A DNA stretch of 32,000 nt from Vibrio vulnificus CMCP6 (GTDB taxonomy: Bacteria; Pseudomonadota; Gammaproteobacteria; Enterobacterales; Vibrionaceae): positions 420,001-452,000 of the forward strand of contig NC_004460.2 in the NCBI RefSeq assembly GCF_000039765.1, written 5' to 3'. The notes under the pieces are model-generated. The model searched no databases. It saw nothing but the letters and a program-made list of their open reading frames with translations, and was not told the origin of the DNA. The position numbers were made by a program, and so were the translations under genes. Positions 29,196 to 31,723 of the stretch are shown here, piece after piece (the first letter of the stretch is position 1; each line of letters starts with the position of its first letter).

Positions 29196-29459
29196 ATAGT
29201 ACTTTCACCACTTTCGGTCTTCATAACCATACCCATTTTCCCGATCAAGGCAATGTCGGAGGTATTACGGTCATTGAGAAAGCCTTCTTCCGTGAAGCGC
29301 ACCTGAAATCGCTCACTACCAACATCACCATATTGTGCGAGTTCTGCTAGATCAGCATCGCTATACTTGGGCTAACACCCCTTCTCCGCGACTTGCTCTC
29401 AGCAATTTTAGCTTCTTCCAGACTGTCAGGAAGAACTGCTTTTTTTGTAACAACTTACC

Positions 29460-29702
29460 TTACTTGGTTAACTCTCCAAGCACATATGTTTTCATCGATG
29501 AGAAATCAGAAAACGTATGTAAACCCTCCCTACTCCCTCTTTCAAAATAATAAACCAGCCAAACGCCTTCCTCCTCGATGACGCACGTCCTTTCATTTTT
29601 CTCTAGACCTAGAGAATAGTAATTTTTGGGAACACCTAACTTTACTAACTCCTGATCTAACGAATCCAAACTATTGTTTGTTGTATTCCCAATATTTACC
29701 AC
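29460..29702 (-). CDS. Small putative immunity protein downstream of toxin tail A, 80 aa
   Basis: It has a GTG start with AAAGAGG 6 nt upstream. It sits 66 nt after the Rhs-fragment stop, is AT-rich, and contains a GVWLVYYFERGSREGLHTFSDF motif that resembles small immunity proteins found next to polymorphic toxins. The family assignment is not certain. Confidence 0.45.
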   Translation of the reverse strand: MVNIGNTTNNSLDSLDQELVKLGVPKNYYSLGLEKNERTCVIEEEGVWLVYYFERGSREGLHTFSDFSSMKTYVLGELTK

Positions 29703-29768
29703 GGTAAACCTCTTTCAAAATTGGATTATCACCCGAAATTAGGGTCTGAGGACTTCGACGCATGCCTC

Positions 29769-30347
29769 CTATTGGATTGATTGAATGAGCGCAGAAGACT
29801 GCTCTAAATCACCAAATGCGAGTTGCGCTAAGTCAACAACCGCATCAACGGCTGTGTTATAAGCACCTGCCGCCAGCATTTCTGTCGCACCCAACGCATA
29901 ATCAATGCCGACTTGCTGAACAGCGTCTGGCGCTATGGCATGTAACTGATAAGTCGGGCTGGCTGTTTTCACCGCACTGGCGTAATTGCCTGAGCCCATC
30001 GCGTAAAACATTGGCTGTTGCGGCTGGGTATCGTTCACGCCGGCTTTTATTGCAGGGGAGTCCTCTTTGGCACATAAACCATGCGGGTCTACCCACATCA
30101 CCGGATTGGGGGCATATTGATAATGGTTTATACCGCCTAAAAGCCCAATCGGGTCTGGCTGAATAAAGCGTCCTGTTCTTGGATCGTAGTAACGGGCAAG
30201 GTTGTAGTGTAGCCCTGTTTCCGCATCGTGATATTGCCCTTGAAAACGGAGTGGGTTGCCAACGCTCTCCACCTCAATGTGTGCACGTCCGTATGTGTCG
30301 TAACGTGCTTGCCAAACAACGGAGCCATTGACAGTAACGCAGAGTAC
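29769..30347 (-). pseudogene. 5'-truncated Rhs-family fragment: the last ~90 residues of the Rhs core through the DPxGL motif, plus a linker and a short C-terminal tail (orphan toxin tip A)
   Basis: The frame is open from 30347, with an in-frame TGA at 30350-30348. It reads VTVNGSVVWQARYDTYGRAHIEVESVGNPLRFQGQYHDAETGLHYNLARYYDPRTGRFIQPDPIGLLGGINHYQYAPNPVMWVDPHGL (DPHGL at 30089-30075). There is no Rhs body or credible translation start upstream. The track ORF 29769-30272 is the same frame from an internal Met. Confidence 0.75.
29926..30016 (-). repeat. Copy A of a perfect 91-bp direct repeat (encodes PMFYAMGSGNYASAVKTASPTYQLHAIAPD)
   Basis: Hand alignment shows it is identical base-for-base to 31633-31723. 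The flanks diverge completely on both sides. The + strand track ORFs 29816-30166 and 31604-31858 share LALWHVTDKSGWLFSPHWRNCLSPSRKTLA for the same reason. Confidence 0.9.
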
Positions 30348-30487
30348 TCATCTCAAAAACTAACTATTTGGGGACTTTTGAGGTTGGATGACAAACGTTA
30401 AAGCTAAGCCCGCCAACCGACTTAGCAGACTTTGCGGCATTCATGTTGTTTGAGAGTAGAAGTTATTAGATATTAACAAATAAGTCA

Positions 30488-30829
30488 TTATTCGTTGTTC
30501 AAGCTTTCGATTTCATCAGCAAGGGCTTGATCCCACTCGAAGTCAATATTGAAACTTCCTGAGGGGTCGAGGCTAAATGTAGCTCTGTTCCAATTGTTAT
30601 CAGTTCCACTTGTTACTGCATGAAGCTCTTCAAATGCTTCAAATATTTCAAAAGGAACATCGAAATATTTTGGCTGTTCAGGTGATAAGGTTGGAATGTA
30701 TTCACTTTGAAATTCGATAGAACCCTCTGTAAGTTCTGCTCGAATTATTGAGATTGACCAATCATCATCTATAGAATTGACAATTGATTGAGCTATGGTT
30801 AAGTACAAATTTTCTACGCTATTTTCCAT
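30488..30829 (-). CDS. Immunity protein, DUF600 / YezG / EssI-like, 113 aa
   Basis: It overlaps the toxin stop by 11 nt, with AAGGAA 8 nt upstream of its ATG. It is acidic. The pattern LYLTIAQSIVNSIDDDW...IRAEL...F..EY......F.VP.EIFEAFEEL.......NWNRATFSLDPSGSFNIDFEWD parallels, from memory, B. subtilis YezG (IYEQIAQILVDMIPEEW..VYLYGEV....W..LTLIL..TGKFKIEYDYED). Confidence 0.65.
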   Translation of the reverse strand: MENSVENLYLTIAQSIVNSIDDDWSISIIRAELTEGSIEFQSEYIPTLSPEQPKYFDVPFEIFEAFEELHAVTSGTDNNWNRATFSLDPSGSFNIDFEWDQALADEIESLNNE

Positions 30830-31718
30830 TGGGCATATTCCTTAAAAAACGCTTCACTTTTTTACCATCAATTTCATATATTATTTCAAATGCAGTGGGC
30901 CTTTTGCTTTCGCCTTTAAAAATCGAGTTTATCTCAACTTTAACTTCTTTAGGTGGGTTTCCACTAAGTGCTTCCGCCCATTTATTTTCCATCCGTTTCC
31001 AAGCACCTTTGTTTAAGTTGCCATTCATCGCTGCATAGTTTATTTGCTCACCAGGACCTTTAAAGATTGATGCGATAAGGTGACCGCCTTCATCATCAAC
31101 TAGGCCATCCTTAATACCATCTGTTTTCCCAGCTTTGCTTTGCTGATAAGTGTTTCTATCTACTTTGTTGAGTTCGAGTTTACCAGAAACGGATTTCACT
31201 CTGCCAAGTTCATCCGTTTTATATGAGTAAGAGCCCACTTTATACGTTGCGTTTGCTTCAAGTTTGCCATTGAGAGCCTTGTTCCATCCACCTTTGCTTC
31301 CTTGATCTAATTCAATTGTATGCGAAGTTGCCCCCGGCAACTCACTCCCTTTCGGTGCGTCCAGTTGTTTGGCAACTGATGTTAGGCTATCACCTCCCTT
31401 TGCTACTGTCTCCGTAGCTACATTTAGTGCTTTATTGCCATATTTTGCTGCTGTCACTCCCTGCCCAACGATTGGCAAGCCAGACAATAAAGACAAGCCA
31501 CTATTCAAAAAGTCGCCGCGCAGCGCATACAGCCCCGCATTAATTAAATCCGCTACAATGCCAATTCCAGGAGCCATACCGGCACCATCAAGCGCCAAGT
31601 GTATTGCCTCAAGTGCAGCACCTTTGTATTCATCTGGCGCTATGGCATGTAACTGATAAGTCGGGCTGGCTGTTTTCACCGCACTGGCGTAATTGCCTGA
31701 GCCCATCGCGTAAAACAT
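30819..31718 (-). CDS. Orphan polymorphic-toxin tip B: a pre-toxin TG (PT-TG) domain plus an Endonuclease_NS_2 (EssD/YeeF-type) DNase domain, 299 aa from an ATG inside the 91-bp repeat
   Basis: LDGAGMAPGIGIVADLINAGLYALRGDFLNSGLSLLSGLPIVG matches the PT-TG pattern. DDEGGHLIASIFKGPGEQINYAAMNGNLNKGAWKRMENKWAEAL..KEVKVEINSIFKGESKRPTAFEIIYEIDGKK matches the GHLIA...N.G.W..ME..W......V.V......G.S.RP pattern of EssD/YeeF nucleases. There is an in-frame TAA 6 nt upstream of the ATG and no SD, so it is probably not expressed on its own. Confidence 0.7.
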   Translation of the reverse strand: MFYAMGSGNYASAVKTASPTYQLHAIAPDEYKGAALEAIHLALDGAGMAPGIGIVADLINAGLYALRGDFLNSGLSLLSGLPIVGQGVTAAKYGNKALNVATETVAKGGDSLTSVAKQLDAPKGSELPGATSHTIELDQGSKGGWNKALNGKLEANATYKVGSYSYKTDELGRVKSVSGKLELNKVDRNTYQQSKAGKTDGIKDGLVDDEGGHLIASIFKGPGEQINYAAMNGNLNKGAWKRMENKWAEALSGNPPKEVKVEINSIFKGESKRPTAFEIIYEIDGKKVKRFLRNMPNGK

Positions 31719-31723
31719 TGGCT
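31633..31723 (-). repeat. Copy B of the perfect 91-bp direct repeat
   Basis: Identical to 29926-30016, offset by 1707 bp. It forms the 5' end of the toxin tip B frame. Confidence 0.9.

Follow-up and report, generated by a model that had tools for sequence, protein, structure and literature searches.

At the end of a 32,000-nucleotide (nt) stretch of Vibrio vulnificus CMCP6 DNA (contig NC_004460.2, positions 420,001 to 452,000; hereafter the window) lies an array of Rhs-type polymorphic-toxin modules, which is the subject of this analysis. Window positions are used throughout; the module region analyzed extends from 29211 to 32000, and the array is read on the minus strand. The initial annotation, made from the letters of the window, described an orphan array of this type, and this description was borne out by both the anatomy of the region and the family matches. 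Three modules, termed B, A and C in the order of reading, are arranged as follows.

31727 to 32000, plus strand: unrelated DNA interrupting the array, with an XRE-type helix-turn-helix (HTH) frame that contains a TAG at 31856-31858 and runs beyond the window end
30819 to 31726, minus strand: orphan toxin tip B, consisting of a linker block, a pre-toxin region of about 100 amino acids (aa) and an Endonuclea_NS_2 domain
30488 to 30829, minus strand: immunity gene B, 113 aa, YezG-like/DUF600
30331 to 30487, minus strand: spacer of 157 nt from immunity gene B to the next rhs fragment, whose rhs homology begins at 30330 (position 11389 of comparison locus L002)
29772 to 30330, minus strand: module A, a diverged copy of an rhs 3' end, with the core end, the linker containing block copy 2 and the start of a type 2 pre-toxin region
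29671 to 29790, minus strand: tail of a TNT-type NADase toxin gene, about 33 codons, assigned by alignment to the C-termini of proteins from L016 and L019
29460 to 29702, minus strand: presumed immunity gene A, 80 aa, whose homologues lie directly after TNT domains
29211 to 29411, minus strand: module C, the 3' remnant of a third toxin gene, 85% identical to a partial open reading frame (ORF) of L033
29166 to 29188, plus strand: terminator-like hairpin and T-run, 3' of the EEP (Exo_endo_phos) gene, in the flank common to all strains

The comparison loci are labelled L001 to L033. Carriers of the exact 299-aa product of tip B were read in 23 contigs; at least 20 of them are represented by L001 to L003 and the similar places listed with these, and the contig of L004 begins at the 299-aa ORF itself. 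Ten further loci (L005 to L014), which differ in their neighbours, were fetched by means of the LemA protein of the window. L005 is BA000038.2, which we take to be chromosome II of V. vulnificus YJ016. The decay of toxin B and of the immunity genes was tallied over 14 loci. The family cutoffs were 27 bits for Endonuclea_NS_2, 21.7 for YezG-like/DUF600, 32.5 for TIGR03696 and 26.9 for Imm59.

The 299-codon ORF of tip B (30819-31718, minus strand) is uninterrupted. It starts at an internal Met at 31718 and is preceded by an in-frame TAA at 31727-31725. Residues 156-285 match Endonuclea_NS_2 (PF13930) with an E value of 1.2e-36 and 126.3 bits, covering model positions 2-132 of 132, and tip B is considered to be a nuclease toxin of this family, its activity being predicted. 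The following immunity gene B overlaps the toxin stop by 11 nt and has AAGGA 9 nt before its ATG; its product matches YezG-like/DUF600 (PF04634) above the gathering score (37 bits, E 4.7e-9). A nuclease tip overlapped by an immunity gene with a good Shine-Dalgarno sequence had been proposed, and both parts agree with these results. The pre-toxin part of the tip had also been read as PT-TG (PF14449). This identity was not supported by Pfam searches at E<=1 and E<=10: residues 1-130 of the ORF gave no Pfam match even at the latter threshold. All 299 residues of tip B are identical to the C-terminus of a full-length 1449-aa Rhs in L013, and the gene following that Rhs is identical to immunity gene B at 111 of 113 positions. 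Immunity gene B is intact in all ten loci having it. Toxin B is disabled by a frameshift in L007, L010 and L014, by a nonsense codon in L012 and through truncation by an insertion sequence (IS) in L009, with the immunity gene intact in each; these five disabled copies represent three independent events.

The spacer behind immunity gene B (30331-30487) contains no ORF and gave no family match. It is followed by module A, whose rhs part lies in a 193-codon frame (29769-30347, minus strand) that opens behind a TGA at 30350-30348. Residues 16-91 of this frame match TIGR03696 Rhs_assc_core (104 bits, E 4.3e-30), and the core finishes in the cleavage motif DPHGL (PNPVMWVDPHGL), in agreement with the earlier reading of a fragment of the Rhs core end. 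Module A thus comprises the final ~90 residues of the core, the linker holding block copy 2, and a 51-residue type 2 tail ended by TAG; over 568 nt it is 93.3% identical to the main rhs gene of L002 (5511-6077), described below. The block is a direct repeat with copies at 29926-30019 and 31633-31726, identical at 93 of 94 positions. It had been noted as a repeat of 91 nt; its presence in two copies was correct, but its length is 94 nt.

About 33 codons at 29671-29790, with the sequence INPIGGMRRSPQTLISGDNPILKEVYRGKYWEYNKQ*, are in a different frame from the rhs part of module A. At both the protein and the DNA level they align with the 3' ends of large genes in L016 and L019, which are metagenomic contigs. 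These genes encode TNT domains (E 4e-27 and 6e-27, respectively), carried by an Rhs in L016 and by a VgrG with a C-terminal extension in L019. The TNT domain (PF14021) itself is not present in the window, and the surviving tail corresponds to the part downstream of the model-matched region in L016 and L019. Since the tail and the rhs part of module A differ in frame, an internal out-of-frame deletion has removed the TNT toxin domain while the presumed immunity gene was left intact. The latter is the 80-codon ORF at 29460-29702, recognized in the initial annotation. Homologues of 65-76% identity follow the TNT genes with the same 32-nt overlap (L016 5416-5891; L019 2000-2469), and across unrelated contigs the homologues hold their length at 65-99% identity. 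The gene is intact in seven of the seven loci having it. From this gene neighbourhood, it is likely to be the cognate immunity gene of the deleted TNT-type toxin. Its product matched none of the immunity family models; Imm59 (PF15597), with 13.4 bits against a gathering cutoff of 26.9 (E 0.11), was rejected as its identity.

In L013 (14336-15163), L006, L007, L012 and L014, an ankyrin-repeat gene of 272-275 aa stands in place of module A, the 80-aa gene and module C; ahead of it are the same spacer and the initial 54 nt of the rhs fragment. It might represent a different kind of orphan immunity gene.

Over 209 nt, module C shares 85% identity with the 3' end of a partial ORF with which the contig of L033 begins; L033 holds an orphan array adjoining the EEP gene in another V. 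vulnificus assembly. A tblastx search of the remnant against the comparison loci retrieved before L033 found only its own copies; a protein search then found the L033 relative. The remnant frame gave nothing significant in Pfam and NCBIfam. Module C is the stop-riddled 3' end of a third toxin, its family being unassigned; no immunity gene remains beside it, and it abuts the conserved flank. The remnant reported earlier is real, but in-frame TGA and TAG stops, not a frameshift, have disabled it. The intactness of both immunity ORFs and of tip B was correctly stated. The region had further been described as AT-rich. This applies to the toxin and immunity stretches, with a GC fraction of 0.35-0.40 against 0.44-0.50 in the flanks, but not to the rhs core fragment (0.50-0.52).

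On its upstream side, the array is broken in the window. The rhs homology ends at 31726/31727, right by the in-frame TAA, and the window ends 274 nt past this break. Beyond the break, on the plus strand, lies the XRE-type HTH frame with its in-frame TAG, which matches HTH_3/HTH_31 weakly (E ~0.015); read through the stop as KIASLRKEP*ITQVQLSENLGISQQYMQAFEAG, it aligns to a 174-aa HTH protein. The earlier view that this DNA is unrelated and carries an HTH pseudogene is consistent with these results.

The continuation of the locus is seen in assemblies that match the window almost perfectly, with 8 mismatches in 11,182 nt for L002 and 12 for L003. In L001 to L003, the array is preceded, in order, by a vgrG 3' end, a 96-aa PAAR gene, a 302-aa gene and an rhs gene of 1477-1479 aa. 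The main rhs is followed by a 142-aa gene and ORFs of 51, 169 and 159 aa, and then by the 299-aa ORF. The VgrG shows the domains Phage_GPD, Phage_base_V and Gp5_trimer_C, and the 1477-aa Rhs shows DUF6531, RHS_repeat, TEN_YD-shell and RHS. The main rhs has the same orientation as the array, and its stop is located 3.2 kb upstream of orphan B and 2.9 kb past the window end (the last base of the window is L002 9719; the rhs stop is L002 6812). A full-length rhs bearing the block had been suggested as something to search for, and it was found: a third copy lies in the main rhs (L002 5821-5914), 96.8% identical to the tip B copy and inside the 568-nt stretch matching module A. Between the HTH frame and the immunity region of the main rhs, the matching assemblies contain the 159-aa ORF and a broken IS5-type transposase (L002 7968-9017), which is split into two ORFs with matches to DDE_Tnp_1_5 and DDE_Tnp_1 (E 9e-29). 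The 302-, 142-, 169- and 159-aa products gave nothing significant in Pfam and NCBIfam. The arrangement recurs across many independent assemblies among the 23 contigs, and misassembly was rejected.

The 302-aa gene (L002 1470-2378), between the PAAR gene and rhs, is kept in all four loci that reach this point (L001 to L003 and L005), and its 3' end is seen in L013; its position suggests that the product is an Rhs chaperone or adaptor. The 169-aa ORF recurs at 92.8% DNA identity in L002 (7243-7955, with the 51-aa ORF) and in L033 (656-1364, behind a 161-aa ORF), and probably represents a further orphan immunity unit. One and the same IS copy, at 98.7% identity, is found within two differing arrays, L002 7968-9017 and L009 ori 3500-4550. 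In L009 it abuts tip B, of which 59 residues are left. Besides homologous recombination, deletions mediated by the IS seem to reshape the array.

The array differs widely between strains. In L005 to L014, homology to the flank reaches window position 29210 (L002 12509), after which all loci diverge; the variable region therefore starts at 29211. The ten loci retrieved with LemA contain ten different arrays between the same EEP flank and an rhs gene, which agrees with the earlier view of horizontally acquired, rearranged and strain-variable DNA; invariance, which would have spoken against that view, was not observed between strains. L005 has just the main Rhs, tipped with TNT, and a 118-aa gene. 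In L007, L010, L012 and L014, orphan tip B follows a stretch of rhs core measuring ~540-610 nt (split in two in L012), and such a core piece ahead of the orphan tip is the classic mark of displacement. Modules in other loci include TNT, Ntox15/Tdi1, Imm49, ankyrin-repeat and others. An origin as integron cassettes or from the V. vulnificus superintegron, suggested by the HTH pseudogene and the small ORFs, was also considered and dropped: the flank is shared with BA000038.2 and rhs homology explains the locus, and no attC-like sequence was seen by eye in the spacers.

The nuclease/immunity pair is also found outside Vibrio. In Pseudoalteromonas phenolica, the toxin domain and the YezG-like immunity gene (L022 7019-7953) are 88% identical to those of the window at the nt level, and belong to a 1202-aa carrier whose upstream region is unlike that of the window. 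The module of Pseudoalteromonas fenneropenaei (L029 7000-7657) is 95% identical and is a truncated orphan, and more distant modules occur in Shewanella, Ningiella and Photobacterium. The module thus moves between genera and carriers. The DNA identities of 95% and 88% with Pseudoalteromonas indicate recent intergeneric transfer. The 159-aa ORF upstream of tip B showed no similarity to the 159-aa ORF that follows the Pseudoalteromonas module (E 3.7).

Comparison of the C-terminal regions (window 31329-31726 and 29772-30019, minus strand; L002 5780-6312; the Rhs of L005, L009, L010, L012 and L013) revealed a common architecture. Every Rhs copy at the locus shares a 47-residue linker after DPHGL, CAKE.SPAI.AGVNDTQPQQPMFYAMGSGNYASAVKTASPTYQLHAIAPD, and the 94-nt block is the portion of this linker surviving in the truncated tip B. 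The linker is followed by one of two pre-toxin regions. Type 1 (EYKGAALEAIHL..., ~100 aa) precedes Endonuclea_NS_2 or Ntox15, and type 2 (AVQQVGIDYALG..., ~133 aa) is found ahead of TNT, of an NTP_transf_2-like domain (E 8e-5) or of two unassigned domains. No Pfam family was matched by either type. It might be supposed that the linker and pre-toxin regions are entry or translocation domains released with the toxin, as well as nested recombination sites, in which case tips would be swapped at three levels and the variable tip would not start at DPxGL. For this, a likeness to the cytoplasm-entry domains of CdiA-CT can be proposed, but the idea is a doubtful one. The linker and the two shared pre-toxin regions after the cleavage motif are the only mildly unusual aspect of the locus.

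From the arrangement described above, window 29211-32000 can be understood as the far end of a VgrG-PAAR-Rhs effector locus that lies on chromosome II of V. vulnificus and was enlarged by sequential displacement, an interpretation to which we assign a probability of roughly 0.87. The array has the traits of an orphan Rhs module: it lies downstream of a full-length rhs in the same orientation, it retains rhs homology and a toxin/immunity pair, and its tip is found on an Rhs elsewhere. The order of events that we infer is as follows. A new toxin tip with its immunity gene would recombine into the 3' end of the main rhs, and the previous pair would be pushed downstream as an orphan. Three relics may have been left in this way: B, with nuclease tip and immunity gene intact; A, with the TNT toxin deleted and the immunity gene intact; and C, a stop-riddled 3' end. 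A later IS-associated rearrangement might have swapped the rhs core fragment before tip B for the HTH pseudogene, the 159-aa ORF and the IS5-type remnant. The orphan toxins would not be exportable, because they have no Rhs shell and no link to PAAR or VgrG. The likely present function is that the two immunity genes, presumably expressed, protect against kin firing a nuclease or NADase tip. In addition, tip B might still serve as a template. Across the block, its reading frame matches that of the main rhs, and if RecA recombined the in-frame 94-nt blocks (97% identical), tip B would become joined to the main rhs, recreating the gene seen in L013.

Several points weigh against this interpretation. 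A promoter scan was no better than chance, with 5 sites against 5.2 expected. The homology available for re-fusion of tip B is only 94 nt, compared with the 522 bp used in Salmonella, and re-fusion would delete the immunity gene of the current toxin unless the locus had been duplicated first. Retention of the immunity genes is indistinguishable from neutral survival: the 900-nt toxin has been hit three times independently and the 342-nt immunity gene not at all, for which the chance is ~0.38. Selection was considered as the cause of intact immunity genes beside broken toxins, and with so few independent events no claim is made for it.

Some of these points would be expected if the modules were pure genomic debris, that is, nonfunctional pieces that are intact only through recent displacement and serve neither for protection nor for reuse. 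The promoter signal at the level of chance, the clearly dead module C and module A toxin, the disabling of tip B in five other loci by three independent events, and the nonsignificant excess of hits in toxin over immunity gene are all compatible with such debris. However, immunity genes B and A are intact wherever they occur, and the homologues of the 80-aa protein are conserved in length across unrelated contigs. Furthermore, an orphan immunity gene protects experimentally in Serratia (PMC10539506), orphan tips are reused in Salmonella (PMC3967940), and tip B exists in both the orphan and the Rhs-fused form. Debris is therefore considered improbable. A different role for tip B would be that of an intracellular nuclease translated from the ATG at 31718, which together with its immunity protein might form an addiction module of the toxin-antitoxin kind and stabilize the locus. 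The position of this ATG straight after the stop, the 299 uninterrupted codons and the translational coupling to the immunity gene would fit such a role. However, the Rhs linker has this Met as one of its ordinary internal residues, present as PMFYAMG in every rhs copy; the Met is preceded by no Shine-Dalgarno sequence (AAAAGCCAATG), and no promoter-like site was seen upstream on the minus strand. Related strains lose or break the toxin, yet keep the locus. An addiction module thus seems very unlikely.

The initial annotation itself favoured a free-standing reservoir: an orphan array whose carrier is gone and which is retained to provide immunity or to recombine with a main rhs elsewhere in the genome. 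Inside the window, indeed, the DNA upstream of 31727 shows no resemblance to rhs, PAAR or vgrG, and the break coincides exactly with the in-frame stop. However, near-identical assemblies carry all three upstream: among the 23 contigs with the identical 299-aa ORF, at least 21 represent arrangements that include the whole vgrG-PAAR-rhs set, and these assemblies place the main rhs in the same locus, 3.2 kb from the orphan ORF, at 8-12 mismatches in 11 kb. The window stops 274 nt past the break, so the carrier is missing only because of where the window edge falls. For the matching assemblies the free-standing reservoir is already refuted, and for the window it is hardly credible. A window that stops a few hundred bases beyond an orphan array is no basis for calling that array carrier-less.

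Growth of the locus by displacement corresponds to a mechanism that is already established, and the locus adds a new, well-preserved case to a known kind. In Salmonella Typhimurium LT2, main and orphan rhs recombine over 522 bp of 95% identity (Koskiniemi 2014, PMC3967940). The LT2 orphan rhs-CT/rhsI modules, like those of the window, lie downstream of a full-length rhs in the same orientation, keep a conserved piece of rhs, are devoid of export signals, have the cognate immunity gene next to them, and occur as Rhs-fused tips in other strains. Unlike the LT2 orphans, tip B keeps only 94 nt of homology, because the IS-associated rearrangement would have removed its core fragment, and this homology is located after the DPxGL motif and not before it. 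Moreover, the recombination was observed in Salmonella, whereas here it is a prediction.

Module A resembles rhs1 of Serratia marcescens Db10, where the immunity gene for a TNT NADase survives downstream of an Rhs with another toxin, its own toxin being absent, and where this orphan immunity gene protects against a TNT-type Rhs NADase (Hagan 2023, PMC10539506). Unlike in Db10, the footprint of the deleted toxin (~33 codons) and the rhs 3' end are still visible in the window. The Db10 immunity protein has 124 aa; the 80-aa protein of the window, which matches no family model, is set beside it by context and not by sequence, and a protective effect here would follow by analogy.

Within the genus Vibrio, sequential displacement producing immunity arrays in V. 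cholerae is given in the title of Kirchberger 2017 (PMC5361080), and as far as that title goes, the auxiliary-cluster arrays of type VI secretion (T6SS) resemble the present one in that displacement has left older immunity genes. The relics in the window differ from the V. cholerae arrays in still holding toxin fragments and rhs core. In V. cholerae, incoming effector-immunity modules reportedly take the place of the resident effector, with older immunity genes remaining downstream, resulting in strain-specific arrays; the effectors concerned are said to be cargo effectors loaded via adaptors, and not Rhs C-terminal tips. A literature search found no paper on the present locus with its lemA/M48/EEP flank.

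As for the surroundings of the array, a convergent terminator had been proposed at its distal border. The hairpin is present at 29166-29188, but it scores as a terminator on the plus strand only, serving the EEP gene; the whole terminator scan gave 2 such sites against 3.3 expected by chance. A 91-aa ORF (29027-29302, minus strand), annotated as a gene (P0011) in some assemblies, runs from the module C remnant through this terminator into the convergent EEP 3' end and is almost certainly a spurious gene call. Elsewhere in the window, a 183-aa ORF is followed by a gene for a 471-aa protein with Leukocidin and Ricin_B_lectin domains (14155-16123, plus strand), a pair which we take to be the V. 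vulnificus cytolysin operon vvhBA. Two chemoreceptor genes of the dCache type lie at 9455-13427, and 535-6907 holds a molybdopterin oxidoreductase gene cluster that probably encodes a nitrate reductase.

Since the mechanism is an established one, the value of the locus is descriptive: it provides a fossil series of tip displacement, of toxin loss with the immunity gene kept, and of the passage of a nuclease/immunity module between genera. For V. vulnificus, it places a hypervariable Rhs effector/immunity site by lemA/M48/EEP on chromosome II, which likely sets which strains kill or resist one another, for example in oysters.

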